DNA of 64,000 nt, taken from positions 110,143 through 174,142 of the forward strand of contig JAFRVB010000008.1 of NCBI GenBank assembly GCA_017441845.1, read 5' to 3'. Below, piece by piece: positions 27,652-51,563 of this stretch. The position numbers were made by a program, and so were the translations under genes. The notes beneath the pieces were generated by a model, which saw only the letters and a program-made list of their open reading frames with translations, did not search any database and was not told where the DNA came from. Each line of letters opens with the position of its first letter. Position 1 is the stretch's first letter. Source of the DNA: Bacilli bacterium. GTDB lineage: Bacteria > Bacillota_I > Bacilli_A > RF39 > UBA660.

Positions 27652-28233
27652 CTATATTTTATTTATTTCATCTACAAAATCTTTAATCTTTTCTCTATCA
27701 ACACTATCAGTATTTAATAAGAATCCCTCAAGTAGTAATTTATAACTATCTTTTCTACTAATACCTCTACTCATTAAATAGAATAACAAACTCTCTTTAA
27801 ACTTACCTATATAAGCACTATGATTCGCATTAACATCATAGTTATCTACTAATAAATTAGGCCATATCTTACTTTTACCATTCTTAATATTAATAATTTG
27901 ATTATCTTGATTACAATCACAATTCTCACTCTTTTTAGGTATAACTCCATCTACCCAATAATGTAATTTATTATCAGATACATTAACTCCATGATTATAA
28001 ACAAAACTATTAGTATTACTCTTATTATGATTAATTCTAATCTTATAAGTATTATCATCATAATTAATATTATTATAATAATAATTTAATGTAATATCTT
28101 CTTTATTTAAATTAACTTCTACATCATAACTTTTATTAATACTATAATGATAAATTATAGTATCTTCTTCTAAATCAAATTTATAAGTATCTTTATTTTC
28201 ATCTATATAAATAACCTTACTCATCTTTACCAT
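27652..28233 (-). CDS. Truncated SufD-like protein
   Basis: Only 193 aa. The C-terminal 'HSAYIGKFKESLLFYLMSRGISRKDSYKLLLEGFL' matches the SufB/D C-terminal helix region. The position between sufC and sufS is where sufD normally sits. Confidence 0.6.
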   Translation of the reverse strand: MVKMSKVIYIDENKDTYKFDLEEDTIIYHYSINKSYDVEVNLNKEDITLNYYYNNINYDDNTYKIRINHNKSNTNSFVYNHGVNVSDNKLHYWVDGVIPKKSENCDCNQDNQIINIKNGKSKIWPNLLVDNYDVNANHSAYIGKFKESLLFYLMSRGISRKDSYKLLLEGFLLNTDSVDREKIKDFVDEINKI

Positions 28234-28966
28234 CCACTATCTCATAACCATTCTTCTCTATATCATGAGCTAATTTAATATCACCAGTTTTCTTGATATT
28301 ACCATCTACTAAGACATGTACAAAGTCTGGTTTAATATACTCAAGTATTCTAGGATAATGAGTAATTATTAATACTGAAGTTTTAGGATTATCTTTTAAA
28401 TAATTATTAATATTTTTACTAACTATCTTCAAACTATCTACATCTAATCCAGAATCTAATTCATCTAAAATAATAAATTTAGGTTTAATCATCTTTAATT
28501 GAAGAATCTCATTCTTTTTCTTTTCTCCACCACTAAAATCTTTATTTAGAGATCTATGAGTCATCTTACTATCTAATTTTAAATCTTTCATATTAGATTC
28601 CATATCTTTAATAAACTGATATAAATTAGTCTTTTCTCCATTAATAGAATTAATAGCTGTTCTAATGAATTCACTATTACTTACACCATCTATCACTGTA
28701 GGATCCTGCATAGAAAGAAAGATACCTAGTTTAGCTCTTTCATCTACACTAAGCTTTAATAAATCATTATTATCAAAATTAATCTTACCTTTAACTACTT
28801 CATATTGATAATTACCCATAATAGTTTTAGCTAAAGTACTTTTACCAGTACCATTAGGTCCCATTATCGCATGAATCTCTCCATCACCAATCTCTAAATT
28901 AAATTTATCTAAAATATTAATATCACTATCTACCACTCTAGTAGATAAATTAGTAATTTTTAACAT
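28217..28966 (-). CDS. sufC: Fe-S assembly ATPase SufC
   Basis: 'MLKITNLS...', Walker A 'GPNGTGKST', signature 'FSGGEKKK', Walker B 'FIILDELDSGLD'. The start is moved to the internal ATG at 28966. Confidence 0.92.
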   Translation of the reverse strand: MLKITNLSTRVVDSDINILDKFNLEIGDGEIHAIMGPNGTGKSTLAKTIMGNYQYEVVKGKINFDNNDLLKLSVDERAKLGIFLSMQDPTVIDGVSNSEFIRTAINSINGEKTNLYQFIKDMESNMKDLKLDSKMTHRSLNKDFSGGEKKKNEILQLKMIKPKFIILDELDSGLDVDSLKIVSKNINNYLKDNPKTSVLIITHYPRILEYIKPDFVHVLVDGNIKKTGDIKLAHDIEKNGYEIVDGKDE

Positions 28967-29044
28967 AAAACCACTCCTATAAACCATATATATAATAACA
29001 TAAAAATTACAAATAATAAAAAAAATCAACATAAGTTGATTTTC

Positions 29045-30862
29045 TTATTCTACAACATATGGATCATCTTTACTACCTGTACCTGATACATATTCGGTTC
29101 CTGGTTTAAGAGAAATAGAAGGGCGAACACCAGAAGTAGCACTTATACTAAGGCAAGAAAAACCTCCCAAAGTGTCGATTGTACATCCATAAGAATGGGA
29201 GTTATGATACATACTAAAAGAACCAATCCAGTAACTAGCACCTGTTTTTCTAGTTAACTTAACTGTATGATTCAATAAAGCTAACTCTTTATAAGTCGCT
29301 AAACCAACTGGATAATCTAGTCTAGCTTTATTATTAGATAAGCTAAATTTATCTGTATCCTTTTCACAAGTTAAGGATAGACTAACAAACTCCAAATACT
29401 TACTTACACTTCCACCATTTGGATTCCATCCATTTGTACTTGAATTTATTTGAATTCTATTATAACAAAAAATTGTATCTTCTAAGTATGTTGTATAATT
29501 TGTCATATTGCTTTCATACCAATCATCTATATATGTTTTTATTGTAGAATTAGTTTGATTTACATTATCACTATAAAGCATTTCATCGATAGCATCTTCA
29601 ATACTATTCCCATTTGTTAGATCAATGTAGTAAATATATGATGAAATACTAGGTGTTTCAGCAAAATATACATATGATAGTGTTTCACACTCACCTGTAT
29701 TATTAAAACATGTATAATGATGTGTGTTCAAATTACTTTTATCATTATCTGTCATATTCCATGTTTCATATCTATCACTACCTAAAGTATATATACCCGT
29801 TGCGCTATTATACACAAAATCTTTCGCATATTTATAATTGTTTGATAAAAAAAGTGAATAATAGTAATAACTACCTGTAGAAGTGATATATTTCAAATCT
29901 GTACATGTTATTGAATCACTTCCACAAGTATAATAGTTTTTATACGGAGAATAATTACTAAACCAATCTAATTTTGAAATTGTAATGGAATCTGTTAATG
30001 TATATATACCATTATCTTCAGTATAATCAGTTCCAAGTAATATATTAGTATTATAATAATTTAATAAATTACCTTCAGTCATACTAAATCCATAAATGCG
30101 ATCACTTCTTCCACCTGCAATATAATAAACAGTAGAACATGTTGTCTCGGTTGTAGATCTACAGGTATATAAATTACCAGATGAAGAATATGTATTTGTC
30201 CATGTGTCTTGCGTTATGTCGGTTAATATATATTTTTTAGTATCACTATCATATATTACTCCCGTTCCATAATAATAATTGAATGATCCTGCCATATATA
30301 TTGTATCAAAAAGTTTATTAGAATCTGGTTTTATTGTATTTTCGATGTATCTTATATTATTCATATATGATGCATCGGCTAGTGAAGCAGAATTTGCATT
30401 AAATTGAGTTCTTCCTATTTGTTGGGCAGTACCTTCATTATTACATTTCCCTTCATTTGGTATACCATTGTATATTAATTTCACTCCACCAGTATCTGTA
30501 GTTCTAATCATTTGCCAACAAAACTCCCCAAATATTACATTCCATTTATCCAGTATCGTATTAGCGTTTGAATCGTTTGATGCATACCAATGATATATAT
30601 TTTGCGTTGGTTCAGCTATAAAAGAATCTTGATGATTATCAGTAAACTGTTTGGCGTATGTTCCTATATCTGCTTCCTTCTTTAACACATTATATAAAGT
30701 AGGACTATATTTTTCATAATCAATATCTCCAGCAATACTTAAATCTTTATTCAAAGCAGAAAAACCAACACTTATTGTTAGTAGTGTTGTCCCAAGTAAT
30801 GATAAGAATACTGTTATAAAGAATCTTACCTTGTTATTTCTTTTTAGATTGAAATTCGACAT
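29045..30862 (-). CDS. Secreted Tyr/Thr/Asn-rich surface protein with shared N-terminal leader and DUF6273-like C-terminal domain
   Basis: Leader 'FFITVFLSLLGTTLLTISVGFSALNKDLSIAGDIDYEK'. Repeated 'Y(Y/T)C...C' modules. C-terminal 'YWIGS...SGVRPSISLKPG...GSKDDPYVVE'. Confidence 0.6.
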   Translation of the reverse strand: MSNFNLKRNNKVRFFITVFLSLLGTTLLTISVGFSALNKDLSIAGDIDYEKYSPTLYNVLKKEADIGTYAKQFTDNHQDSFIAEPTQNIYHWYASNDSNANTILDKWNVIFGEFCWQMIRTTDTGGVKLIYNGIPNEGKCNNEGTAQQIGRTQFNANSASLADASYMNNIRYIENTIKPDSNKLFDTIYMAGSFNYYYGTGVIYDSDTKKYILTDITQDTWTNTYSSSGNLYTCRSTTETTCSTVYYIAGGRSDRIYGFSMTEGNLLNYYNTNILLGTDYTEDNGIYTLTDSITISKLDWFSNYSPYKNYYTCGSDSITCTDLKYITSTGSYYYYSLFLSNNYKYAKDFVYNSATGIYTLGSDRYETWNMTDNDKSNLNTHHYTCFNNTGECETLSYVYFAETPSISSYIYYIDLTNGNSIEDAIDEMLYSDNVNQTNSTIKTYIDDWYESNMTNYTTYLEDTIFCYNRIQINSSTNGWNPNGGSVSKYLEFVSLSLTCEKDTDKFSLSNNKARLDYPVGLATYKELALLNHTVKLTRKTGASYWIGSFSMYHNSHSYGCTIDTLGGFSCLSISATSGVRPSISLKPGTEYVSGTGSKDDPYVVE

Positions 30863-30950: not shown

Positions 30951-32711
30951 TTAATATCTATCATTACCAAGTATACTTTGAGCATCTTCTAAGATCTTAG
31001 CTAAGTTGTTACTTCCTTCTACTTGGCTTCTTAAATCAGTTAATTCAGCTGATTGAGAATTGATAATTCTTTCTTTATCTCTCACTCTATCTTCTAAACT
31101 ATCCATTTGAGCTTTTAATCTATCAATTTGATCTTCATAGTTTTGAATAGATGATCTAATTCTTTCTCTATCTTCTTTAGCTCTATCTACTACTTTTCTA
31201 TTTAGATCAGTTAATTCTTGAACTTGATTCTTATATTCATCTAATTCATTCATTTGATTCTTATTAGCTTCAATTAATTTAGAAATAGTTAAAGCAGCAC
31301 TATCCATAATACTTGTTCCACTCTTAGGAGCAGAATAACTATAAGAATCATTATAATTATGACTTCTAACATCTAGATTTCTAACATCATCTTTCTTAGT
31401 CAAGTCATTTAAGAAGTCATCAAACTTATCTCTTGGTTCTTCTTTAATAGCGTTATCTAAGTCTCCAAATAGATTATCTGATTCTTGAGTTTCAAATTTA
31501 TGATCAAAGTTAACTTCATCTAATAGATTATCATCTTCTATTTTTTCAACCTTTTCTTCTTCCTCATCAACTACATTAAATTTATCATAATTAATAGTAG
31601 GAATAGTAATTGGCTCTTCTTCAGTAACAATACTATCTGTAGTTACTGCAGAGAAGTTAGCTTCTTCCTCTTCTTCAACTGGTGGAGTATCTACTACTTC
31701 ATAAGGTGATGGAACTTCAGTAACTGGAGAAACATAATCAGTATCTTCTACTGGTGCTTCAACTACATCATATGGTGTAGGAATTTCAGCTTCACCTGCG
31801 ACAGCAGCAACTTCTTGTGCTGGTACCTCACTTATTGGAACTTGAGGAGCTTCAACTTCAGGTGTAACTGGAACTTCTGGTGCTCCTTCAGGAACTTGAA
31901 CTGCATCTTCTTGAGCAACTGGAGCAGTTACATCAACTGGAGTTTCTGAAGTTGCTTCTTGAGAAACTTCTGCATTTTCCTCTACTCCATCTTCAGGAAG
32001 TTTAGGTATTTCTTCACCATTCATAGCAGTATCTATTTCTTCTTTAGTTACATTTGCATCATTAACATCAATATCAGTAAATCCAGCATTCTCAGGTACT
32101 TCTCCTTGAGGTACATTAGTTGTATCATTTAAAGTCATTGTTGTTAATGAGAATTTATCAACTGGGCTTTCTTTAGTATTATCACTTAAGAAAATAGTAT
32201 CTGAATTCTTATTAATAGCAATAAAACTATAAAATTTATCTTCTACTAAGTTTTTACCATCTAAATCATATAAACTTGCTTCACTGAATTGATCATTGAA
32301 TAAGAATCTACCATCAGTTCCCATCTCTGAGAATACTTTATCTTTAACTAAAGCAGTAGTGCTGACTAATTTAGTAGCAGCTAAAGGATCTTTTCTAGTT
32401 TCGCAAGCATCTATAACACACTGAGATACTGGAGTTGATTTTTCTACTAATAAAATATCTTTAGTGATTAGTTTAATATTCTTGTTCTCACAAGGTATAA
32501 CAATATTACCTTCCGCATCAATTAATCCAACATTCGCATGTACTACAGAAGAATCTATTGCTTCAACTAATGTAGATGTAACAATAATATTATTATTAGA
32601 TAATTTTGAGTCATTCAAAAAGTAGAATTGACGACCATCATCCGTAATCCCATAAGTACAAACTATATCACTACGATCCTTATATTTCACTAACCCCTTT
32701 TGTATTTTCAT
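30951..32711 (-). CDS. Hypothetical protein: N-terminal beta-rich domain, acidic Pro/Glu/Val-rich spacer, C-terminal coiled coil
   Basis: 586 aa. 'GLIDAEGNIVIPCENK' resembles a WG-repeat strand. The centre is 'PEVPVTPEVEAPQVPISEVPAQEV'. The C-terminal heptad-like stretch is 'DRLKAQMDSLEDRVRDKERI'. Confidence 0.45.
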   Translation of the reverse strand: MKIQKGLVKYKDRSDIVCTYGITDDGRQFYFLNDSKLSNNNIIVTSTLVEAIDSSVVHANVGLIDAEGNIVIPCENKNIKLITKDILLVEKSTPVSQCVIDACETRKDPLAATKLVSTTALVKDKVFSEMGTDGRFLFNDQFSEASLYDLDGKNLVEDKFYSFIAINKNSDTIFLSDNTKESPVDKFSLTTMTLNDTTNVPQGEVPENAGFTDIDVNDANVTKEEIDTAMNGEEIPKLPEDGVEENAEVSQEATSETPVDVTAPVAQEDAVQVPEGAPEVPVTPEVEAPQVPISEVPAQEVAAVAGEAEIPTPYDVVEAPVEDTDYVSPVTEVPSPYEVVDTPPVEEEEEANFSAVTTDSIVTEEEPITIPTINYDKFNVVDEEEEKVEKIEDDNLLDEVNFDHKFETQESDNLFGDLDNAIKEEPRDKFDDFLNDLTKKDDVRNLDVRSHNYNDSYSYSAPKSGTSIMDSAALTISKLIEANKNQMNELDEYKNQVQELTDLNRKVVDRAKEDRERIRSSIQNYEDQIDRLKAQMDSLEDRVRDKERIINSQSAELTDLRSQVEGSNNLAKILEDAQSILGNDRY

Positions 32712-35059: not shown

Positions 35060-36475
35060 TTAAACTTCTTTTTTTATTTTCTTATAAAAGTAATACTCTT
35101 TTTCTTTATATATAAGTTTATATGATTTATTATCTTTTAAATAATAATATAGTGGATATTTACTGGATACTAAGTAATAATCAAAATCATATTTCTTCAT
35201 TATCTTTTTAAAATCTTTAGATAAGAAAGTTAAATCTAAACTATCATTATAATTCTTTTTAGAATAGAGATCTGCTCTACCATCTATAAATACTTCTATA
35301 TCATTATAGATTAATTCTCCTCCTAGATTATATAAATTATATAACTTATTTGGATTTTCTTTCTTAATAGTATTAATAAACTTATCACTTAACTCAGTTT
35401 TAGTAGTATCAACCATAATATTTTTATTAAATGAATAACCAAATATAAATATAAAGAGACATGATGCTAGTATTAATATAATATTAGTACCCTTATCATC
35501 TTTTCTATCAGGAATATAATAGAATACTACTAAACTCATAATAATATATGTATATATCCAAAATCTAATACTTTTAAGACCTAAGAATAAACAAAATAGA
35601 AATAAAATTCCATCTATAAATCTAATCTTCTTTTTACTTAAAGTAAATATAAGTACTATGATAAATGCTAAAACAAAGTACATTAGATGAGTTCCATTAT
35701 TTAAAACAGTAGGTTGCCATTCTGATATAGTAGCTAACATAGTAGAATTAAGCATATTCTCATATGGATAAAATATCATCTTTATACCATGAGGATTTAT
35801 ATTTAAACATAAGAAACTAATACACATAATTAAAATATAAGTATTTATTTGTTTTAAACTAAGTCTATTTGCTTCTACTTTACTAAAATTAAACTTACAT
35901 ACACTAGCTATTATAAATATAAGTGGTATTAAATATACTAAGTTACTAGATCCCCCATGTATATTAGCCCATAATATAGCTATTATTGGTAAAAAGAATA
36001 TCTTTTTAGAATCTTCATTATTATATAAGTCATAACAGAAATAACAAGTTAATAATAAGAATATACTACTAAGCATATGAGGTCTAGCTAGCATAACAGT
36101 AGATGTTATAAAACCTAAACATAACCAAATAATTCCAAATAACTTATTTCTTTCAATATTCTCTCTATTAATAAAATATATAATTAAAAATAATAATAAT
36201 GAACATACTAATCCATATACAAATATATTGTATTTAGAAAACAATAAATATAAACCATATATTATTACTTCAAAACCCCATTCATGACTCATCCAATATG
36301 TTCCTGGAATAGTCCAAGAAAAGATATCATGAGTTAGAATAGAATGATTAGAAAACATGTATTCTCCTGCTTTAATATGCCATAGATAATCACTATCTAT
36401 TCTCATAAAAACCATTAAGAATAATACAAAAGAAATAGTAAAAATTAAGAATATTAATCTACTTTTATTCTTCAT
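35060..36475 (-). CDS. Polytopic membrane protein (possible GT-C-type glycosyltransferase; unknown)
   Basis: At least 10 predicted TM helices and an N-terminal loop 'WHIKAGEYM...DIFSWTIPGTYWMSHEWGFE'. The function is not established from the sequence. Confidence 0.4.
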   Translation of the reverse strand: MKNKSRLIFLIFTISFVLFLMVFMRIDSDYLWHIKAGEYMFSNHSILTHDIFSWTIPGTYWMSHEWGFEVIIYGLYLLFSKYNIFVYGLVCSLLLFLIIYFINRENIERNKLFGIIWLCLGFITSTVMLARPHMLSSIFLLLTCYFCYDLYNNEDSKKIFFLPIIAILWANIHGGSSNLVYLIPLIFIIASVCKFNFSKVEANRLSLKQINTYILIMCISFLCLNINPHGIKMIFYPYENMLNSTMLATISEWQPTVLNNGTHLMYFVLAFIIVLIFTLSKKKIRFIDGILFLFCLFLGLKSIRFWIYTYIIMSLVVFYYIPDRKDDKGTNIILILASCLFIFIFGYSFNKNIMVDTTKTELSDKFINTIKKENPNKLYNLYNLGGELIYNDIEVFIDGRADLYSKKNYNDSLDLTFLSKDFKKIMKKYDFDYYLVSSKYPLYYYLKDNKSYKLIYKEKEYYFYKKIKKEV

Positions 36476-37211
36476 AATATAATCCTTTCTGATATAGTTT
36501 ATTCTTAATAACATATTCTAATTCTTTATCTTTATATTTCTTACTATATCTTTTATATAACTTATCATATTCTTTCTTTACTATATCTTTATCAACACTA
36601 ATAGTAGTTTTATCTAATACATCATTAATTAAAGATATATCATATCCTAGATTAATAATATTATTTTTAATTTTATTTTTTAAAACAATACCACCAGTAC
36701 TCTTATTACTTTTAATCATCTTATCAACTAATTTTTCTATTCTTATTAATTCTTCTTCAGAAGAAAATACTTCTAAATTATTATTAATTATCTCTTCATC
36801 TACTTTATGTTTTAATAATTCTCCTCTTATCTTATATGGTCCCCAATTGGTAGTAATCATCTTATCGTTGATAAAACTATAAGCATAACTATCATCATTT
36901 AAATAACCTTGTTTTTCTAATAAACTAATAACATCAATAACATACTTATTATCATATTCTTTATTTAATAACAATTTTTTCATATCATATTTAGATTTAG
37001 ATCTACTATTAATACTTTTTAAAGCATAATAGTAACACTCATAATACTCATTATCTTTTTTTATCTTTTTAAGTAATTTATCATCAATACTTTTTTTAAT
37101 TAATAATTCATATTTTAATATGATATCTTCATATAAAGTTAATTCTATATTGTTATCTAAAATAACTTTATATCTGTTATCTCTTAGTTTTTTATACTTA
37201 ATTATATTCAT
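36465..37211 (-). CDS. recX: RecX-like regulatory protein
   Basis: 'MNIIKYKKLRDNRYKVILDN...' N-terminus and repeated three-helix RecX-type units ('ALKSINSRSKSKYDMKKLL', 'VISLLEKQGYLNDDSYAYSFI'). GGAGTGG RBS. Confidence 0.65.
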   Translation of the reverse strand: MNIIKYKKLRDNRYKVILDNNIELTLYEDIILKYELLIKKSIDDKLLKKIKKDNEYYECYYYALKSINSRSKSKYDMKKLLLNKEYDNKYVIDVISLLEKQGYLNDDSYAYSFINDKMITTNWGPYKIRGELLKHKVDEEIINNNLEVFSSEEELIRIEKLVDKMIKSNKSTGGIVLKNKIKNNIINLGYDISLINDVLDKTTISVDKDIVKKEYDKLYKRYSKKYKDKELEYVIKNKLYQKGLYYEE

Positions 37212-37258
37212 AGAACCACTCCAATTAAAGTATAACATAAAAAAAAGAAATTAATATC

Positions 37259-37554: not shown

Positions 37555-37580
37555 AAAAAAGAACTAATATAGTTCTTTTT
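37555..37580 (-). terminator. Rho-independent terminator after ffh
   Basis: aaaaagaact-aatat-agttcttttt hairpin overlapping the ffh stop. Confidence 0.6.
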
Positions 37581-38886
37581 AAAAAGGCATCTTCAAGTTT
37601 CCATTTCTAAACTGTTTTAACATCTTTTTCATTTGTTCAAATTGTTCTAATAACTTATTTACTTCTTGTACAGAAGTACCGCTACCTTTAGCTATTCTAG
37701 TTTTGCGAGAAGCTTTAATAATATTAGGATTTCTTCTCTCTTTAGGTGTCATAGATAAAACAATTGCTTCTATTCTAGCTATTTGTTTAGGATCAACTTT
37801 AATCTTATCTAAACCAGCTTTCTTAGCTCCAGGCATTAATTTTAATAGGTTTTCAAGTGGACCTAGTTTTCTCATTTGTTTCATACTAGATAAGAAGTCC
37901 TCTAAATCAAACTTACCTTCTTGCATTCTCTTAGCAGTCTTTTCAGCTTCCTCTTCATCTATAGCTTCTTGAGCTTTTTCAACTAATGAGATAACATCTC
38001 CCATACCTAGAATTCTACCAGCCATTCTTTCAGGATCAAATGAATCTAATCCATCCATTTTCTCACTAACACCGATGAATTTAATAGGTACATTAGTTAA
38101 ATGTCTAACAGATAAAGCAACTCCACCTCTAGTATCTCCATCTAATTTAGTTAAAATAACTCCAGTTAAGTTTAATTTATCATTAAATCCATTAATAACA
38201 TTAATAGCATCTTGTCCCATCATAGAGTCTATTACTAATAAAGTTTCATCAATCTTAACAGCGTTAGATATATTTTCTAACTCATTCATTAATTCTTCAT
38301 CTATTTGAAGTCGACCAGCAGTATCTATTAATACATAATCATGTTTATTTTCTTTAGCAAACTCCAAAGCATTTTTAACTATCTCAACAGGATCTTTTTT
38401 ACCTTCATCATATACAGCTATATTAAGTTCTTTACCAAGTTGTTTTAATTGATCAATAGCAGCTGGTCTATATACATCTCCAGCTACCATTAAAGGATTC
38501 TTTTTCTCTTTTTTTCTTAAATAATTAGCTAATTTCGCAATAGTAGTAGTTTTACCAGATCCTTGAAGACCAACTAACATTAAAACAGATGGTTTACCAC
38601 TTACATATAAAGGAGATGCTTCTCCTCCAAGTAATTCAACTAATTCATCTTTAACTATCTTAACGAACATATCTCCAGGATTAATACTTTTCTTAACTTC
38701 AGTACCTAGAGCTTTCTCTTTAACATTATTAGTAAATTCTTTTACTACTTTATAGTTAACATCAGCTTCTAATAAAGCTAATCTAATCTCCCTCATCATG
38801 GAATCAATATTATCTTCAGTAATCATTCCATAACCTTTAATTTTATTAATCGCGTTTTGTAATCTATCTCCTAAATCTTCAAACAT
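37579..38886 (-). CDS. ffh: Signal recognition particle protein Ffh
   Basis: 'MFEDLGDRLQNAINKIKG', 'GLQGSGKTTT', 'DTAGRL', 'TKLDGDTRGG' and a Met-rich M domain. The start at 38886 lies 6 nt after AGGTG. Confidence 0.95.
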   Translation of the reverse strand: MFEDLGDRLQNAINKIKGYGMITEDNIDSMMREIRLALLEADVNYKVVKEFTNNVKEKALGTEVKKSINPGDMFVKIVKDELVELLGGEASPLYVSGKPSVLMLVGLQGSGKTTTIAKLANYLRKKEKKNPLMVAGDVYRPAAIDQLKQLGKELNIAVYDEGKKDPVEIVKNALEFAKENKHDYVLIDTAGRLQIDEELMNELENISNAVKIDETLLVIDSMMGQDAINVINGFNDKLNLTGVILTKLDGDTRGGVALSVRHLTNVPIKFIGVSEKMDGLDSFDPERMAGRILGMGDVISLVEKAQEAIDEEEAEKTAKRMQEGKFDLEDFLSSMKQMRKLGPLENLLKLMPGAKKAGLDKIKVDPKQIARIEAIVLSMTPKERRNPNIIKASRKTRIAKGSGTSVQEVNKLLEQFEQMKKMLKQFRNGNLKMPF

Positions 38887-38948
38887 TGTCATCACCTACT
38901 ACATATTATACAAGATATTACAAAGAAAAAATAGTCTTACGACTATTT

Positions 38949-41231
38949 TTAACTAAAATCTTCCGGATCAGATGAATCATCATCATCATCTAATTTTAAT
39001 TCATCGATTCCTTTATCTTCACTACTTTCAGTAAAAGCAGTATTATCAATTAACTCAGGTACAGCGAAACCATCTGATTCTTTTTCTTCTTCTATAACTG
39101 GTTCAGAGATTGCACTTTCCTCTTGAACTAATTCAGGTTCTTCTGTTTTAGCATTATTATCTAATACATCAACAAGTGGTTTACCTTCATCAGTCTTAGG
39201 AATATCCGGTCCTTTATCTTCATCAACAATACCTACTAAAGGTACTCCTGTATCAGTTTTAGGAACATCTTCCTCAACTGGTTTAGAACTCATTAATTCA
39301 GCAATATCATTATCAAATGATCCCGACTCAGTAGGTTTAGCTTCTTGAGACACTTCTTTAATACCTTCAGTTCCCATGTCAGCTTTCATAGCTTCATTAA
39401 TTGAACTAACATTTTGAACAACATTCAAACTATCATCATTAGGAGCAGTTCTAGTATTATCAACACCCTTACTATGACCATTCCAAATCTGAACAACATC
39501 AGCATTTCCACTCCAAGGAGCTGGATCAGGCATTTCCATTCTAATGATTAAAGGTATTCTAAATCCTAAACCGAATCCTAAACAAGTACCAGCTTGTAAT
39601 GTTTTCTGTTTCTCAACAATTTCTTCACTAATATTAGGAACCATCTTTCTAATATATTCAACGTCTACTGGGTGGTTCATCTTAAATATTAAGAAATTAG
39701 TACATTGAGAAATAACAGTATCAGATAATTCAACAGGTCTTTGTGTAATAAGTCCTAGAATAACACCATATTTACGACCCTCTTTAGCAATTCTTTCAAA
39801 GATATTATATCCAATCAAGAATCTATCTGTATCATTTTGAATATATCTATGTGCTTCTTCACAAACTATATGGAAAGGTATACTACCTCTATTTTTTAAT
39901 CCTTTAGCAAATTCAAATACTAATCTAGAGAATATTTTAACTATAACTTTAGCAAAATCATCATCTACATCATCTAAATTAATATTAATAATTTGATACT
40001 TTCTTCCACTATCTAATATTAATCCACTTAAGAATTCTTCTAAAGAAATATAATTATCTACATCAAAGTATTTAGCATTATCTCCAACTATTAAAGCATG
40101 TAATCTAACTCTTATAGTAACCGCATCACCATAAGTATTAGTATTTCTTAACCAACCTTCACTAATCAAAGTAAAGTTTAATGCTTTCTCTAAAGTATCT
40201 AAATTATAATAAACTCCACCCTTAGGTTCATAACTATCAAATTTCTCATCTATAAATGAAGTAACATATTCAGTTAATAATACACTTTCACTAAATTGTC
40301 CTTCTGAATCTATTAAGAAACATTCTCTAAATTTTCTAGTATATCCAATACCTTGTACTGGAGCTTCTAAATTAAATTGAGCTGTAGAACAACTAGCTAA
40401 AATAGAGAAAATCTCATTTCTTTTATTAGGACTAGTCTCATTTGTATATAAAATAGTCATAATAGCTTTAGCAATCAAATGATTTTTATAAGCATTCGCA
40501 TCAACATCATCTTGTGAAAAGATTAATGCTAACTTCAACATTCTTTCAATAATAGGTAATTGAGAATGTGAATCACATTGTAGTAATAAAGCTAAATCTT
40601 GTACATTTAATAAATATATAGGTAATCTTAATTTCTCTCCTAACCCTTCTGCTTCATTAGTAGATATAAATCTATAATGATAATTAGGATTAATAGTATT
40701 TAAATTACTAAAAGCATTATAATACTCACCTGAAGAATCAAATAACAAGATATTTGCTTTATAAGGGTATAATCTCTCATCATGAAACATATTTTGGAAT
40801 AATCTAGTAACACCACAAGATTTACCTGATCCAGTATTACCCATTATCGCAAAGTGATTACTAAAGAAATTATTAACGTCTAAGTATATAGGGAATCCAT
40901 CATAGAAAGGACTAGTACCAAGATTCATGAACCCTTCTGTATCAGTACCACAAATCATTGGAATTTCACTCTCTTCAACAACTCTAACTTTCGCATCAAT
41001 CTTAGGTTTTCTTAAAGTTCCAGGTATAACTTTATTATCAACTATTTCACCCAAAAATCTGGCCTTAACTAATTCTCCATCAAGGTCATCAACTTCTCCT
41101 AATACTTTTTTAGTGTCGTCTTCAAATATAAGATGCAAGTTCATTAAATTCATACTGATATTTTCAGCATCTTTTAACTTAATATTACACCCCTTATCGC
41201 TAATATAAACAATTTTATCAAACATAGACAT
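38949..41231 (-). CDS. HerA/DUF87-type (FtsK-HerA superfamily) ATPase with ~170-aa acidic disordered C-terminal tail
   Basis: N-terminal HAS-barrel-like region, Walker A 'FAIMGNTGSGKS', Walker B/'FHIVCEEAHRYI', 'RKYGVILGLITQRPVELSDTVISQCTNFLIFKMN'. The tail has a duplicated 'PKTD(T/E)G(V/K)PLV' motif and a terminal poly-Asp. Confidence 0.75.
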   Translation of the reverse strand: MSMFDKIVYISDKGCNIKLKDAENISMNLMNLHLIFEDDTKKVLGEVDDLDGELVKARFLGEIVDNKVIPGTLRKPKIDAKVRVVEESEIPMICGTDTEGFMNLGTSPFYDGFPIYLDVNNFFSNHFAIMGNTGSGKSCGVTRLFQNMFHDERLYPYKANILLFDSSGEYYNAFSNLNTINPNYHYRFISTNEAEGLGEKLRLPIYLLNVQDLALLLQCDSHSQLPIIERMLKLALIFSQDDVDANAYKNHLIAKAIMTILYTNETSPNKRNEIFSILASCSTAQFNLEAPVQGIGYTRKFRECFLIDSEGQFSESVLLTEYVTSFIDEKFDSYEPKGGVYYNLDTLEKALNFTLISEGWLRNTNTYGDAVTIRVRLHALIVGDNAKYFDVDNYISLEEFLSGLILDSGRKYQIININLDDVDDDFAKVIVKIFSRLVFEFAKGLKNRGSIPFHIVCEEAHRYIQNDTDRFLIGYNIFERIAKEGRKYGVILGLITQRPVELSDTVISQCTNFLIFKMNHPVDVEYIRKMVPNISEEIVEKQKTLQAGTCLGFGLGFRIPLIIRMEMPDPAPWSGNADVVQIWNGHSKGVDNTRTAPNDDSLNVVQNVSSINEAMKADMGTEGIKEVSQEAKPTESGSFDNDIAELMSSKPVEEDVPKTDTGVPLVGIVDEDKGPDIPKTDEGKPLVDVLDNNAKTEEPELVQEESAISEPVIEEEKESDGFAVPELIDNTAFTESSEDKGIDELKLDDDDDSSDPEDFS

Positions 41232-41294
41232 CCCCTCTATTTACCCTATATAAATTATATCTAAAAAAAAAGAAATATACAAGCAATATTTCTT

Positions 41295-41606
41295 TTAATT
41301 CTTAAATGTATTATTCAACATCTCTTTCAATTCTTCTTTTAATTTTTTATCATCAATTTTATCTATTCCATTTTCTATTTTCTTTAAATTATCATATATA
41401 TGTAATTTACTTTCTAATTCTTCTAATTTATCAGTACCCATTTTTAATTGTTTAAATACAGCATTTCTACTAACAGAATACTTTTCTCCTATTTCACCAT
41501 AACTAAGATTATCAAAGTAATAATCTTTAAAATAATCTTTTTGCTTATCTGTTAATAATTCTCCATAAATATCAAATAAATCATTATAATAAAATACCTC
41601 ATTCAT
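41295..41606 (-). CDS. ylxM: YlxM/UPF0122 putative DNA-binding protein of the SRP operon
   Basis: 'LFDIYGELLTDKQKDYFKDYYFDNLSYGEIGEKYSVSRNAV' (sigma-70 region-4-like HTH). Confidence 0.85.
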   Translation of the reverse strand: MNEVFYYNDLFDIYGELLTDKQKDYFKDYYFDNLSYGEIGEKYSVSRNAVFKQLKMGTDKLEELESKLHIYDNLKKIENGIDKIDDKKLKEELKEMLNNTFKN

Positions 41607-41615
41607 AATAAACTC

Positions 41616-41846
41616 CTATAATAATATAACAAATATAATTAAAAATAATAATCCAAATACAAAGTATGTAATAGCCCAACCCATCTTTTTCTTATTATAA
41701 CTATTAATAAACATTTCAAAGAAAGATAAAGCTAAAAAGAATATAAATAAGTATTTAAACCAATTATTAAAGAAATAAAGTATTCCAAAAATAATTGTTA
41801 AAAATATTATTGATACTTGAAAATAAGCCCAAATTCTTTTAAACAT
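41616..41846 (-). CDS. Small two/three-TM membrane protein (unknown)
   Basis: 76 aa and hydrophobic, abutting the ftsY stop (41847). Confidence 0.4.
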   Translation of the reverse strand: MFKRIWAYFQVSIIFLTIIFGILYFFNNWFKYLFIFFLALSFFEMFINSYNKKKMGWAITYFVFGLLFLIIFVILL

Positions 41847-43061
41847 CTACATCATATCCTTAAATAATCCATAAATATATTTCTCAATATCAAAACTAAC
41901 TAAGTCTTCCATTCGCTCACCTAGTCCGATAAACTTAACTGGTATTCCTACTTCTTCTTTAATAGCTAATACTATTCCACCTTTAGCAGTACCATCCATC
42001 TTAGTCAAAACTATACCAGTAATATTAGTAATCTCCTTAAAAGCTTTAGCCTGATTAATACCATTTTGACCGGTACCCGCATCAATAACCAACAGAGTCT
42101 CCGAGCACCCGCCCTCTACTAGTTTAGATACAACATTATTCATCTTTTCTAACTCATTCATCAAGTTAACTTTATTTTGTAAACGACCTGCCGTATCAAC
42201 AAGTACCACATCACAACCAATTTCTTTAGCCTTTTCTATACCATCATATAAAACAGATGAAGGATCAGTATTTTCTTCTTTTCCATAGAACTCAACACCT
42301 GCTCTATCAGCCCATTCATGAAGTTGTTCTATGGCTCCAGCTCTAAAGGTATCTCCGGCTACCATCATAACTTTTTTACCTTCAGATTTTAACTTATTTG
42401 CTATTTTCGCAATAGTAGTAGTCTTACCTACTCCATTAACACCAACAAATAAGATGACACTGATATCCTCTTCATTAAAATTAATTTTATTAGTTAAAAT
42501 CTCATCATTAACATAAATAATAAATAATTCATCAACAATTATCTCTTTTAATTCAGATGGATCATCTAAATGTTCTTTTCTGACTCTATCTCTAAGTCTA
42601 TCAATAAAATCCATAACAGTATTAACACCAATATCTGCCATGATTAATATTTCTTCTAATTCCTCAAAGTATTCATCTGTTACTTTTTTATATTTATTAG
42701 TTAAATTAGCTAATTTAGATACAAAACCTTCTCTAGATTTAGATAATCCCTTTTCATATATCTTAATATCTTTCTTCTTATCTTCTTTTTTCTTTTCTTT
42801 TTTTACTTTTTTCTTCTCAACAGGTTTCTCTTCAACAACTTCTTCAATAACAGGTTCTGGCTTTTCTTCAGTTTTTTCTTCTACTTCAGGTTCCTCTTCT
42901 ACTTCTTCCTCTGAAGTTTCTTCTGCTTCAGTCTCTTCTTCAACTATCCCCTCAGGTTCTTCCTCTGAAACTTCATCATCTTCTTGAACTTCTTCTTCAA
43001 TGATTTCTTCTTCATCTTCAGAAGATTTAAACATTTCTTTTATTTTGCTAAATAATCCCAT
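41847..43061 (-). CDS. ftsY: SRP receptor FtsY
   Basis: Acidic Glu-rich N-domain, 'GVNGVGKTTT', 'DTAGRLQ', 'TKMDGTAKGG'. The start at 43061 lies 6 nt after AGGTG. Confidence 0.93.
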   Translation of the reverse strand: MGLFSKIKEMFKSSEDEEEIIEEEVQEDDEVSEEEPEGIVEEETEAEETSEEEVEEEPEVEEKTEEKPEPVIEEVVEEKPVEKKKVKKEKKKEDKKKDIKIYEKGLSKSREGFVSKLANLTNKYKKVTDEYFEELEEILIMADIGVNTVMDFIDRLRDRVRKEHLDDPSELKEIIVDELFIIYVNDEILTNKINFNEEDISVILFVGVNGVGKTTTIAKIANKLKSEGKKVMMVAGDTFRAGAIEQLHEWADRAGVEFYGKEENTDPSSVLYDGIEKAKEIGCDVVLVDTAGRLQNKVNLMNELEKMNNVVSKLVEGGCSETLLVIDAGTGQNGINQAKAFKEITNITGIVLTKMDGTAKGGIVLAIKEEVGIPVKFIGLGERMEDLVSFDIEKYIYGLFKDMM

Positions 43062-43181
43062 TGTCATCACCTGCCTTTATTATAACATATCAATATAAAA
43101 TATCTCTCAAATAATTTACAAATCATGAAAAATATAGTATAATTTCATAGTTAGTTCTTACGTTAAAAGAAAGGAGAAAAC

Positions 43182-44852: not shown

Positions 44853-44872
44853 TAAAAACTACTTCTTTTTTT
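44845..44872. terminator. Bidirectional terminator between convergent rnj and the LRR gene
   Basis: agaagtagt-aaaa-actacttct hairpin flanked by A-run/T-run. Confidence 0.6.
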
Positions 44873-47192
44873 AAACTAAAGTTAAATATCCTCCTTGAGT
44901 AGTTGGTTTAGCCATACTTACATCAACATGACTAGAATTAAAATTTGGTAATTTAGTTGCCCCAGTAAACATATTATCACCCATAGTTATAGTTACATTA
45001 GCTACACTCCATAATGAGGATATTCTTATTTGAGATAGTTTTGAACAATCACGAAACATAGATGAAATTTTTGTAACTTTTGATGTATCAAAAGACACTA
45101 GATTTAATGATGTTAAATTAATACAATTATAAAACATAAAAGACATTAAAGTTGTGTTGGATGTATTGAAATTTGTTAGATTTAAGCTAGTTATGGCTGT
45201 ACACCCTTCAAACATACCTGCCATATTAGTTACTTTTGATGTATCAAAACCACTGACATTTATACTTGACAATTTAGAACAATAACCAAACATATCTCTC
45301 ATATTTGTAACATTGGATGTATCAAAACTACTTATGTTTAAACTTGTTAAATGATTACAATTATAAAATATCATATCCATACTAGTTACTTGAGAAGTGT
45401 CAAAATGGCTTAAATTTAGACTTGTTAAACTGCTACAATTATCAAACATCCTTTCCATATTTGTCACTTTAGAAGTATTAAAATTTGATATAGCTAATGA
45501 TGTTAAAGCGTTGCAACCACAGAACAAATATCTCATATCGGTTACATTGGATGTGTCAAAGTGGTTCAAATTTAAAGATGATAGTTTTTTACAATTACGA
45601 AAAACAAATGCCAAATCTTTTACCAATGATGTGTTAAAATTTGCAATAGATAAACTAGTCATATTACTACAATCATCAAACATAGCAGCCATATCATTAC
45701 AATTAGGAGTATAAAAACTATTTAGATTCAAAGATGCAAGAGTAATGCAATTGGAAAACATATTATTCATTGTTGTGACTTTTGAAGTATCAAAATTACT
45801 CAAAGATAAGCTTGTTAACACTTCACAATGACTAAACATAGATGACATATCCGTTACATTTGATGTATCAAAACTACTCACATTTAAACTTGTTAATTTA
45901 GCACAAAATTCAAACATACATGACATATTTGTTACTTGAGAAGTATTAAAACGAGTAACATTTAAACTGGTTATATTTTGACAATAAGAAAACATATCTT
46001 CCATATTTGTTACTTGAGAGGTATTAAAATTAGTTACATTTAAACTGGTTAAAGTACTACATTGGCGAAACATACCACTCATATTTGTCACTTTACTAGT
46101 ATTAAAATTGGTTACATTTAAACTAGTTAGTTTTCTACAATAACCAAACATATATGTCATATTTGTTACATTGCTTGTATCAAAATTAGTTACATTTAAT
46201 CCAGTTAAATTGCTACACCAGAAAAACATATATGACATATTTGTTACTTGGGTAGTGTTGAAATTATTAATTGTTAGAGTTGTTAACTCATCACATTCAC
46301 CAAACATATATGACATATTTGTTACTTGAGATGTATTGAAATTATTAACATTTAAACTGGTTAAACTATAACAATAATAAAACATATATGACATATTGGT
46401 TACCTGAGTAGTGTCAAAATTAGTTAAACTAATACTAGTTAACGCTTTACAATTACTAAACATATATGACATATTGGTTACTTGGGAAGTGTTGAAATTA
46501 TTTATATTTAAACTTGTTAATTTAGTACAATTGTAAAACATTTTATTCATATCTGTAACTTGAGAAGTATTAAAACTAGTAATATTTAAACTTGCCAAAC
46601 TAGTACAATCATAAAACATATTATTCATATCTATTACAAGAGATGTATCAAAATCACTTAAATTCAAACTGGTTAAACTACTATTACGACTAAACATATA
46701 TGACGTGTTTTCTACTTTTGAAGTATCAAAATTGTTATTAAAATTAATTGCTTCAACTTTACTTAAATTATAAAATGCATATTTTGAGTTAGGATTACCT
46801 ACCACATCTCCATCTGCACCTATATAAAGTTTATAATATCCAGAATTATTTGGATCATCTATTATCCAAGCCATTACCTTTTGAGTTCCAGAATTTACTG
46901 ATATATCCCAAGTTTTTACTACCTCTTCAGGGATGCTTTTATTATCTAAAAAGTCTATTGTTTTAATTTTTGATCTATAAGATGAAGAATGAAAATCTGA
47001 TGATGAGTTTGACGCATATGACTTAATCATATTACCAGCATCTTGTACATAATCTACATCTCCAGCAATGCTTAAATTTTTATTTAAAGCACCAAAACCT
47101 ACACTTGTTAGTGTAGTTATCATTAGTAATACAGCTATCGCTGTAGTTATATAGAACTTATAACTATTTAAAAATTTGTCTATTATCTTCAT
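44871..47192 (-). CDS. BspA/DUF285-type leucine-rich-repeat surface protein (paralog A)
   Basis: 773 aa. More than 20 tandem ~25-26-aa units 'F(N/D)TS(Q/K/N)VTNMSYMFxxCxxLTSLN(L/V)xN'. Leader 'ITTLTSVGFGALNKNLSIAGDVDYV'. Conserved tail 'KPTTQGGYLTLV'. Confidence 0.85.
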   Translation of the reverse strand: MKIIDKFLNSYKFYITTAIAVLLMITTLTSVGFGALNKNLSIAGDVDYVQDAGNMIKSYASNSSSDFHSSSYRSKIKTIDFLDNKSIPEEVVKTWDISVNSGTQKVMAWIIDDPNNSGYYKLYIGADGDVVGNPNSKYAFYNLSKVEAINFNNNFDTSKVENTSYMFSRNSSLTSLNLSDFDTSLVIDMNNMFYDCTSLASLNITSFNTSQVTDMNKMFYNCTKLTSLNINNFNTSQVTNMSYMFSNCKALTSISLTNFDTTQVTNMSYMFYYCYSLTSLNVNNFNTSQVTNMSYMFGECDELTTLTINNFNTTQVTNMSYMFFWCSNLTGLNVTNFDTSNVTNMTYMFGYCRKLTSLNVTNFNTSKVTNMSGMFRQCSTLTSLNVTNFNTSQVTNMEDMFSYCQNITSLNVTRFNTSQVTNMSCMFEFCAKLTSLNVSSFDTSNVTDMSSMFSHCEVLTSLSLSNFDTSKVTTMNNMFSNCITLASLNLNSFYTPNCNDMAAMFDDCSNMTSLSIANFNTSLVKDLAFVFRNCKKLSSLNLNHFDTSNVTDMRYLFCGCNALTSLAISNFNTSKVTNMERMFDNCSSLTSLNLSHFDTSQVTSMDMIFYNCNHLTSLNISSFDTSNVTNMRDMFGYCSKLSSINVSGFDTSKVTNMAGMFEGCTAITSLNLTNFNTSNTTLMSFMFYNCINLTSLNLVSFDTSKVTKISSMFRDCSKLSQIRISSLWSVANVTITMGDNMFTGATKLPNFNSSHVDVSMAKPTTQGGYLTLV
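44990..46745 (-). repeat. Coding tandem-repeat array (~75-78 bp period) of LRR units in paralog A
   Basis: Recurring DNA words are visible throughout (for example catatttgttacttgag / gtattaaaatt / tttaaactggttaa). Boundaries are approximate. Confidence 0.7.
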
Positions 47193-51223: not shown

Positions 51224-51563
51224 ATAATATAAATAAGCCATGTTCTGTACCTATAAAGGTGACAAACATTTATCTACCATAATGGTCCCTGTTTTTATTC
51301 ATTTCTAAAAACAGAACTCCCCTACCAAATTTGGGTTTCTCGTTCATGGGGTTTACCTCGTTTCATTCCTCCATTTCTAGAGGATTCGTCACTGTGGCAC
51401 TTCAGTATTCCTCATATCCGAAGACTTAGATTCCTACTGCCGTCAGTCAAAGACTGCCTAAGGTTATTTATTCCCTTAGCATGATCACTACTACCGTCGC
51501 AGGTAGTACGAGCATGGACTTTCCTCAAGAGTTTTACCACTCCAGCGTTTGTCTATATATTAT
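51224..51563 (-). ncRNA. rnpB: RNase P RNA, bacterial type B (compact)
   Basis: The minus strand reads ...GAGGAAAGTCCATGCTCG...GGCAGTCTTTGACTGACGGCAG...GTGCCACAGTGACGAA...GGTAAACCCC...GAGAAACCCAAATTTGGTAGGGG...ACAGAACATGGCTTA. G+C is locally elevated. The ends are approximate, set by an ATAATATA/TATATTAT P1-like pairing. Confidence 0.9.

Follow-up and report, generated by a model that had tools for sequence, protein, structure and literature searches.

A HerA-clade ATPase gene between ylxM and ffh in uncultured gut and rumen Bacilli: a candidate housekeeping DNA motor with a lineage-specific acidic tail

The stretch of DNA analysed here (64,000 nucleotides of a Bacilli bacterium, contig JAFRVB010000008.1 of assembly GCA_017441845.1; hereafter the window) raises the question of what a HerA-type ATPase gene does between ylxM and ffh, in the midst of the genes for the signal recognition particle (SRP). 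The gene, referred to as X, is an open reading frame (ORF) of 760 amino acids (aa) on the minus strand, at positions 38949-41231 of the window. To our knowledge, the bacterial HerA proteins described so far work in machines encoded by two genes, NurA-HerA in repair or SIR2/DUF4297-HerA in anti-phage defence. The X family departs from both modes, having no linked effector, a conservation at the level of the SRP proteins, and a place in core loci.

Conservation of X and of the ftsY-ylxM-X-ffh gene order

The genes ftsY, a small transmembrane (TM) ORF, ylxM and X are all co-directional, with ffh on the other side of X:

37579-38895, minus strand: ffh (SRP54 homologue), downstream of X (Pfam SRP54, SRP_SPB and SRP54_N)
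38949-41231, minus strand: X, HerA-clade ATPase gene (ORF call, 760 aa; DUF87, PADLOC and Foldseek)
41295-41606, minus strand: ylxM (UPF0122 helix-turn-helix protein), directly upstream of X (Pfam PF04297, 4e-24, 85 bits)
41616-41846, minus strand: small membrane ORF of 76 aa between ftsY and ylxM (predicted membrane helices)
41847-43070, minus strand: ftsY (SRP receptor; acidic N-terminal A-domain) (Pfam SRP54, 1e-76, and SRP54_N)

The initial annotation, made from the sequence alone, had described a 760-aa gene co-directional with ylxM and ffh and no effector partner beside it; the ORF and its neighbours as identified by Pfam, which are ylxM and ffh, agree with this. It had, however, treated X as an insertion into the SRP operon and had set it against repair and anti-phage systems. 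Comparison with related genomes does not bear out a one-off insertion and speaks against the anti-phage view.

A protein search returned approximately 8000 relatives, the best 120 of which are 66-85% identical to X and 666-843 aa long, and library-wide 4155 relatives were found at E<1e-3 and 222 at E<1e-30. The clade of the window forms two clusters at 50%, followed by a next tier of full-length proteins that are 39-45% identical; searches seeded with members of that tier led to more very large groups of "Bacilli bacterium" proteins from metagenome-assembled genomes (MAGs). X was present in ten GTDB species representatives from gut and rumen, labelled as uncultured Bacilli, Mycoplasma, Erysipelotrichaceae or Firmicutes. 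Seven of the ten carried both flanks (ftsY and ylxM upstream, ffh downstream), and two others, cut at the upstream end, showed X and then ffh. Across these representatives, tblastn identities were 71-79% for X, 79-82% for RNase J, 80-82% for Ffh and 73-78% for FtsY, while YlxM (56-60%) and RecX (47-50%) were well under X. In L001, one of the related loci compared with the window locus and given L-numbers here, Ffh and FtsY each reached 91% and YlxM 70%.

Scanning metagenomes with the family alignment yielded 80 further loci in which the identity of X ranged from 85% to 32%, and ORFs were called and neighbours clustered in 111 chromosomal loci. The order ftsY-(small TM)-ylxM-X-ffh was found in 33 of them, with X 50-100% identical, including tailless versions of X (580-588 aa, 52-59% identical) that follow ylxM after a gap of 2-22 nt. 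The adjacency of ylxM and X was thereby kept from 100% down to approximately 52% identity of X. Among loci in which X is at least 66% identical, 21 of 23 have it in the SRP slot, the exceptions being L008 and L038, where X (66-77% identical) occurs in other chromosomal contexts. In two species, represented by L006 (110-1348) and L009 (4642-5889), ylxM and X are separated by an ORF of 412-415 aa with no known function; X thus keeps its place beside ffh even when another gene enters the slot. A block resembling a conjugative element (DUF6017, DUF3801, TraG-like) lies beyond ffh in L028, within an inserted element. No type IV or type VII secretion system (T4SS/T7SS) genes neighboured X in the SRP-slot loci.

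This gene order is ancient and lineage-wide rather than a one-off insertion into an operon. Throughout a large radiation of uncultured gut and rumen Bacilli of low GC content, X has been fixed as a core gene that is present once and passed on vertically, and it is under strong purifying selection. X is as well conserved as Ffh and FtsY, which favours a housekeeping role over an anti-phage one. The ylxM-X-ffh arrangement is thus common in MAGs, although it cannot be said to be already annotated: database entries of the family read "ATP-binding protein" or "hypothetical" only, and a literature search retrieved nothing on this HerA clade.

Fold, domains and catalytic residues of X

The identification of X as a HerA/DUF87 protein was upheld by profile, sequence and fold comparisons. 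Pfam PF01935 (DUF87, the HerA central domain) matched X at 76.3 bits against a gathering score of 23.2 and was present in every listed homologue. A search of PDB sequences returned HerAs only (E 7e-46 to 2e-19), in the order DUF4297-HerA 9c1m (7e-46), 8ziq and 8xau, SIR2-HerA 8wiv and 8j4u, and then the archaeal HerAs of Sulfolobus (4d2i, 3e-30) and T. kodakarensis (9x1l). The best PADLOC match was the HerA model PDLC04102 (1e-103, aa 99-591), a hidden Markov model (HMM) that alone does not define a defence system. The profile PF01580 (FtsK_SpoIIIE) stayed below threshold (18.4 bits against 24, in one short P-loop stretch), as did TrwB_AAD_bind (16.7 against 20.5) and conju_CD1110 (18.6 against 325), which places X outside the T4SS/T7SS ATPases (VirB4, VirD4/TraG, EssC). 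Weak NCBIfam matches to CedD (1e-11) and CedB (1e-3) scored far under their cutoffs.

A full-length AlphaFold2 (AF2) model for which just 30 close sequences were aligned reached a predicted local distance difference test score (pLDDT) of 48 and was discarded. The core (aa 1-601) was modelled as a monomer from 68 sequences of three subfamilies, with a pLDDT of 85.6 and a predicted template modelling score of 0.82. This model begins with a beta-barrel and ends in a C-terminal segment; between them lies a RecA-like core, interrupted at about aa 224-405 by a helical insertion. When it was compared with the PDB by Foldseek, the top 50 matches were all HerA chains, with template modelling scores (TM-scores) up to 0.72 and alignments spanning the full length (approximately 600-660 columns); anti-phage HerAs came first (1e-29), then the Sulfolobus (4d2i, 5e-23) and Thermococcus (9x1m) proteins. 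The parts of X are located as follows:

40932-41231, minus strand: N-terminal HAS beta-barrel, about aa 1-100 (AF2 strands, pLDDT 70-87)
40560-40931, minus strand: RecA-like core, N-terminal half (structure and sequence alignment)
40818-40841, minus strand: Walker A GNTGSGKS, aa 131-138, with K137 (motif in the N-terminal RecA half)
40005-40559, minus strand: helical insertion or helix-bundle domain, about aa 225-409 (AF2 helices 224-405)
39537-40004, minus strand: RecA-like core, C-terminal half (Walker B, arginine finger, QRP)
39849-39875, minus strand: Walker B FHIVCEEAH, aa 453-461 (E458/E459 invariant in 68 sequences)
39765-39782, minus strand: arginine finger EGRKYG, R486/K487 (aligned to R455/K456 of 8xau; invariant in 68 sequences)
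39735-39749, minus strand: QRP, aa 497-499, within ITQRP, aa 495-499 (Q497-R498-P499 invariant across three subfamilies)
39477-39536, minus strand: C-terminal "hook" MPDPAPWSGNADVVQIW, aa 567-583 (P568, P570, P572 and W583 invariant)

The motifs quoted at the outset (GNTGSGKS, FHIVCEEAH, ITQRP) are all there, and the HAS-barrel-like N-terminus that had been proposed is borne out by AF2 strands at 4-10, 14-19, 33-37, 42-51, 54-64, 67-71 and 81-84, strands being found within aa 4-118 at a pLDDT of 70-90. Residues G131, G134, G136 and K137 were invariant in the 68 sequences of three subfamilies, and R271 and R299 of the helical insertion were invariant across subfamilies. R455/K456 of 8xau form a trans arginine finger (PMC11291478). 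The hook segment PxPxPWS...IW aligned with the C-terminal end of the HerA chains 9c1m and 8ziq, where its role is subunit docking (PMC11291478). Over 30 subfamily sequences, invariant columns made up 39% of the HAS barrel, 61% of the helical insertion, 56-65% of the core and none of the tail. Sequence and predicted fold identify X as a genuine HerA-clade ATPase whose catalytic apparatus is complete, and its family membership implies that it would form rings and translocate double-stranded DNA (dsDNA).

Sister subfamilies, mobile relatives and neighbouring genes

Outside the SRP slot, relatives of X occupied several other chromosomal contexts:

PP2C - lipoprotein - X - sepF - divIVA ... ileS: 13 loci
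rpmH-rnpA <> X -> dnaA-dnaN-comK-recF-gyrB, at the replication origin: 10 loci
adjoining ileS or HIT: 8 loci
yqeG-yqeH-X-(171 aa)-comEA-comEC, or yqeH-X: 6 loci
upstream of an ABC-FtsX pair: 6 loci
adjoining ltaS: 5 loci
rmuC-X: 2 loci, both from the same protein

In the first of these contexts the HerA-like gene immediately precedes sepF-divIVA, where the division cluster has its distal end; the subfamily is 41-44% identical to X (L014-L016, L074, L078, L080, L083, L084, L090, L095, L112). The dnaA-context subfamily is 47-51% identical (L020-L022, L025, L058, L061-L064, L071; for example L020, 5734-9675), and its loci have a comK-like gene between dnaN and recF. These sister-clade contexts lean towards DNA and the cell cycle. 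The SRP site is thus one of several core sites (dnaA, sepF-divIVA, yqeH, ileS), so a functional SRP link is not required.

Regarding a possible partner, no recurring nuclease, SIR2, DUF4297 or NurA neighbour of X was found in the 111 related loci. NurA (PF09376), Mre11 and Rad50 were absent from approximately 110 neighbourhoods and from the window ORFs scanned by Pfam, and neither NurA, SIR2 nor DUF4297 was found among those 51 ORFs (45 of the 56 of at least 110 aa being covered). The sole nuclease-type neighbour seen was rmuC, which encodes a DNA recombination protein with a nuclease-like domain: in L023/L024 (4875-5942) it is co-directional with, and 58 nt upstream of, a HerA-like gene of a distant subfamily that is 39% identical. 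Two kinds of candidate partner were tried and rejected. The ORFs beside X in sister clades (171, 181 and 144 aa, and others), considered as a shared small partner, were mutually unrelated and absent from the window, and these small neighbours had no Pfam match. Neighbours recurring across contexts proved to be DUF285 surface proteins, small TM proteins and housekeeping enzymes. The DUF285 repeat family adjoins X in the unrelated loci L038, L053 and L090 and at first mimicked a conserved partner.

Plasmid relatives of X are at most 32% identical, and those inspected directly follow a SIR2 gene; the SIR2-linked plasmid HerAs share approximately 28% identity with X. Phages yielded just two weak, terminase-like partial matches. 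A phage or plasmid origin of X was ruled out by this distance of the plasmid relatives and the near-absence from phages.

The acidic tail

Beyond the hook, the window protein continues in a tail with several recognisable elements:

38952-39476, minus strand: acidic intrinsically disordered tail, aa 586-760 (175 aa) (pLDDT below 50; composition)
39222-39266, minus strand: short linear motif (SLiM) copy VPKTDTGVPLVGIVD, aa 656-670
39159-39203, minus strand: SLiM copy IPKTDEGKPLVDVLD, aa 677-691
39048-39071, minus strand: GFAVPELI motif
38952-38993, minus strand: acidic tip LDDDDDSSDPEDFS, C-terminal end of X

No Pfam domain was found in this tail. The initial annotation had called it a disordered tail rich in Asp, Glu and Pro with a duplicated motif. 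It is indeed acidic and disordered (D+E 29%, K+R 8%, net charge -36), and the motif is present in two copies; "Pro-rich" was an overstatement, as Pro accounts for just 7%.

The tail is limited to a subclade of proteins at least approximately 66% identical, varies in length from 143 to 272 aa, and cannot be aligned between proteins apart from short motifs. The motif searched was G-x-[PA]-[LIVM]-[LIVM]-x-[LIVMF] (short form G-x-P-L-V-x-[IV]), and its typical form is (V/I)P(K/T)TD-x-G-x-PLV-(D/S/T)-(I/V). It occurred in 101 of 107 unique tails, with 122 copies against 1.65 expected in shuffled tails (maximum 6), and zero copies were found in the cores. Of the tails, 82 have a copy among their final 20 residues (...NG(S/T)PLVSITPxDMLE), while 23, including that of the window, close instead with a tip that is acidic and aromatic (...FDP(V/E)D(F/Y)S or ...FD(D/E)FN). 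A recent tandem repeat in the DNA was considered as the source of the duplication and rejected, no DNA-level repeat being found; what is maintained is therefore the peptide motif, and this, together with the motif statistics, points to selection on the peptide. The sister subfamily at sepF-divIVA has Gln/Pro-rich tails with another conserved motif, SV..IM.QQ, and the remaining subfamilies have none.

The tail motifs do not seem to fit familiar bacterial short motifs (the beta-clamp motif QL[SD]LF, the SSB end DDDIPF, the FtsZ C-terminal peptide, the sortase signal LPxTG), and the likeness of the acidic-aromatic tip to SSB-type tips is no more than generic. Relatives without a tail, in the SRP slot and elsewhere, have the same core, and the tail is thus a lineage-specific accessory.

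Comparison with known systems

The anti-phage DUF4297-HerA and SIR2-HerA proteins (Nezha; 9c1m, 8ziq, 8xau, 8wld, 8j4u, 8sub) share with X the HAS barrel, the RecA core, the helix-bundle insertion, the C-terminal hook, Walker A and B, and the R-K arginine finger. They are its best matches by sequence (7e-46) and by fold (1e-29, TM-score 0.6-0.72), at about 17-23% identity in structural alignments. X differs from them in having no adjacent effector, a syntenic core site, very slow evolution and a long SLiM-bearing acidic tail; its distribution shows core synteny and normal GC instead of a patchy, mobile or defence-island pattern.

The HerA-NurA proteins of archaea and Deinococcus-Thermus (4d2i, 9x1m; PMC9960219, PMC3326311) belong to the same family and fold, and such a housekeeping, non-defence HerA ring in DNA metabolism is a precedent for the role proposed below. 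They are further from X by sequence (3e-30, 2e-19) than the anti-phage HerAs, X shows no nurA, mre11 or rad50 linkage in the neighbourhoods examined, and it comes from another phylum, in reduced-genome low-GC Bacilli.

FtsK, SpoIIIE and SftA have the FtsK-HerA superfamily in common with X. They are hexameric dsDNA pumps tied to division, SftA being soluble, and in them a motor is joined to a long linker of low complexity with sites for protein interaction; sister clades of X adjoin sepF-divIVA and dnaA, which recalls this division link. In contrast to FtsK/SpoIIIE, X has a HAS barrel at the N-terminus and no membrane anchor, and its C-terminus is disordered, with no gamma (winged-helix) domain. 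The likeness to FtsK/SftA is one of analogous role, as we would put it, not of membership. Thermus HepA/TdtA and archaeal CedB/CedD are reported to be HerA/VirB4-like rings that handle DNA outside classical repair and defence, for example in donation and import. The weak CedD and CedB matches of X and the sister clade adjoining comEA-comEC recall them, whereas X has no integrative and conjugative element, pilus or Ced neighbours, and these systems are not known from Bacilli (PMC5365140, PMC5448004).

Proposed role of X and alternative explanations

Our favoured reading, held tentatively, is that X is a domesticated housekeeping HerA DNA motor in chromosome maintenance, probably in segregation or repair. 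X would act as an ATP-driven dsDNA translocase, most likely as a soluble, FtsK/SftA-like protein that shifts chromosomal DNA or clears it away while the chromosome is segregated and the cell divides. Failing that, it might feed DNA ends to an unlinked nuclease in recombination repair, which would be the main alternative to the segregation/division role. The segregation/division role is favoured because of the logic of the superfamily, the sister contexts at sepF-divIVA, dnaA and the ileS region, and the analogy with the FtsK linker and SftA. With six subunits per ring, the acidic tails would project from the hooks and could form a multivalent tether to a partner through the G-x-P-L-V-x-[IV] motifs and the acidic-aromatic tip. 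Alternatively or additionally, they may serve as a polyanionic, DNA-mimicking autoinhibitor or regulator.

Several points weigh against this reading. We infer DNA translocation, hexamer formation and essentiality alike from family membership. The gene neighbourhoods differ between clades and so are weak functional evidence, and a role in chromosome segregation does not explain why X is linked most strongly and deeply to ylxM and the SRP genes. Replacement of FtsK or AddAB would need genomes without FtsK/SpoIIIE or AddAB. The nearest characterised relatives by sequence and fold are anti-phage HerAs, whose ATPase activity depends on the bound effector (PMC11291478); by analogy, X may have a similar dependence on a partner encoded elsewhere. 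Finally, each tail has a net charge of -36, which fits poorly with DNA binding by the ring if the tail is not sequestered.

A narrower and more doubtful proposal is that X represents an unrecognised housekeeping branch of bacterial HerA, a partner-less core motor for a cell-cycle task across an entire radiation of reduced-genome gut Bacilli, replacing FtsK/SpoIIIE or working alongside it. Candidate tasks would be segregation or clearance at division, or origin-proximal DNA handling, and lineage-specific disordered tails with short linear motifs would plug X into the divisome or the nucleoid.

It is rather unlikely, although several observations agree with it, that X is the motor of a HerA-NurA-like machine for end resection at double-strand breaks, with a NurA, RmuC-like or PD-(D/E)xK nuclease encoded elsewhere. 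The HerA fold and the matches to Sulfolobus 4d2i (3e-30 by sequence, 5e-23 by fold) and T. kodakarensis HerA-NurA 9x1m agree with such a machine, as do rmuC directly upstream of X in one sister clade, recX, recA and recU near X in the window, and the strongly conserved HAS barrel, which is the partner-binding face in known HerA complexes (PMC11291478). These are offset by the lack of NurA in the neighbourhoods and window ORFs scanned, by the NCBIfam repair-HerA equivalogs, which X missed by far (NF040937, 115.6 against 800; NF040819, 87.8 against 970), and by the rmuC linkage being confined to two loci with the same protein.

An involvement in the SRP/YlxM pathway, with X as a motor for membrane-protein biogenesis or RNA/protein remodelling and YlxM as its adaptor, is improbable. 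This idea draws on the adjacency of ylxM and X down to approximately 52% identity, with gaps of 2-22 nt in the tailless group, and on the small membrane ORF that is also conserved in the ftsY-ylxM-X unit. The FtsK-HerA superfamily moreover includes protein-translocating ATPases, namely VirB4, VirD4 and EssC. However, sister clades adjoin dnaA, sepF-divIVA, yqeH or ileS without any SRP gene, and the close relatives L008 and L038 have left the SRP slot at 66-77% identity. X also has neither a TM segment nor secretion-system neighbours, the Pfam FtsK and TrwB profiles stay below threshold, and gene order in reduced genomes is often merely inherited.

Defence genes are typically patchy and fast-evolving. 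That X is the ATPase of a SIR2-HerA or DUF4297-HerA type anti-phage system, its effector unlinked or lost, is very improbable: the HerA model as best PADLOC match, the anti-phage HerAs at the top of the PDB sequence and fold matches, and the SIR2 genes beside plasmid relatives are outweighed by the far-missed NCBIfam equivalogs (HerA_antiphage, 145.7 against 800; HerA_antiphage_2, 168.7 against 850), the identity of only approximately 28% to SIR2-linked HerAs, synteny in core housekeeping loci across species with a conservation like that of Ffh, the absence of an effector from every neighbourhood examined, and the lack of a close relative in phages.

Thousands of gut and rumen MAG sequences show the family embedded in core loci (the SRP operon, oriC and sepF-divIVA). 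If X is a housekeeping DNA motor for chromosome maintenance, it would be an unstudied and probably important cell-cycle or repair component of abundant uncultured gut bacteria, and would offer a naturally occurring case in which to study the activation of HerA rings that have no effector cap. It would also be a case of a defence-type HerA having been domesticated, or of the reverse. As a separate housekeeping branch, it would be a bacterial realisation of the old proposal of HerA as a chromosome pump. The tail motifs offer concrete handles for finding the partner of X.

Transcription units

In the gaps flanking X, a consensus terminator scan, which demands at least three G-C pairs in the stem, found none. 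Two hairpins were nevertheless seen:

41262-41296, minus strand: AT-rich hairpin and U-run directly after the ylxM stop, then TATAAT and the RBS (ribosome-binding site) GAGGGG (fold -7.4 kcal/mol, z = -2.6)
38921-38950, minus strand: terminator-like hairpin and U-run overlapping the X stop, then TATAAT and the ffh RBS (fold -9.4 kcal/mol, z = -4.9)

The hairpin and U-run in the gap between X and ffh recurred in nearly all close loci, while a hairpin comparable to the one before X was found in just 5 of 16. This pattern suggests that X closes an ftsY-(TM)-ylxM-X unit and that ffh has its own promoter, with read-through possible. X is placed last in the ftsY-ylxM unit because of the hairpin that follows it and the short ylxM-X gaps of the tailless relatives. 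Both gaps given initially were confirmed by measurement: 63 nt separate ylxM from X, and X lies 53 nt from a GTG start of ffh and 62 nt from an ATG at 38886. The ATG is the likely start, its RBS being better placed than that of the GTG. The true start of X is probably M3 (41225), giving 758 aa, since homologues begin with MFDKIV and the RBS spacing favours this position.

Other features of the window

The identity of ylxM was also supported by the NCBIfam YlxM model (87.3 bits, cutoff 80). The 76-aa membrane ORF (41616-41846) had no match in Pfam or NCBIfam; at least 14 related loci had homologous or equivalent small TM ORFs in the ftsY-ylxM slot (84-109 aa, with a single one of 173 aa), and it looks like a conserved, unannotated member of the SRP gene cluster of this lineage. 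Downstream of X, beyond ffh, are also rpoZ and recX. The GC content of X (0.27-0.34) lies within that of its flanks (0.22-0.35), with no compositional anomaly or foreign signature, and the surrounding window is core chromosome with recA, rny, recU, ponA, dnaD, suf genes and serS. As called, the recX ORF (36465-37238) and the next ORF, a multi-pass membrane protein of 484 aa (35060-36514), overlap by 50 nt (36465-36514); the same pairing was seen in L002 and L007.

Additionally, two large proteins of 664 and 620 aa (19342-21336 and 21829-23691, both minus strand) carry a prepilin-type N-terminal methylation motif (PF07963) and are surrounded by ORFs without a Pfam match (17124-18404, 18931-19338, 21416-21841, 23761-24219). 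This region could encode a type IV pilus or a competence pseudopilus of an atypical kind. Two big DUF285/BspA-like leucine-rich-repeat surface proteins are encoded at 44871-47192 and 60862-62703 (both minus strand). Adjacent ORFs of 605 and 586 aa (29045-30862 and 30951-32711, both minus strand), with no Pfam family at E<=1e-8, adjoin an ABC ATPase gene at 28217-29032. Finally, the sole Rfam family above its gathering score in the window was a complete class B bacterial RNase P RNA (51229-51561, minus strand, 275 bits), which fits a low-GC Bacilli host.

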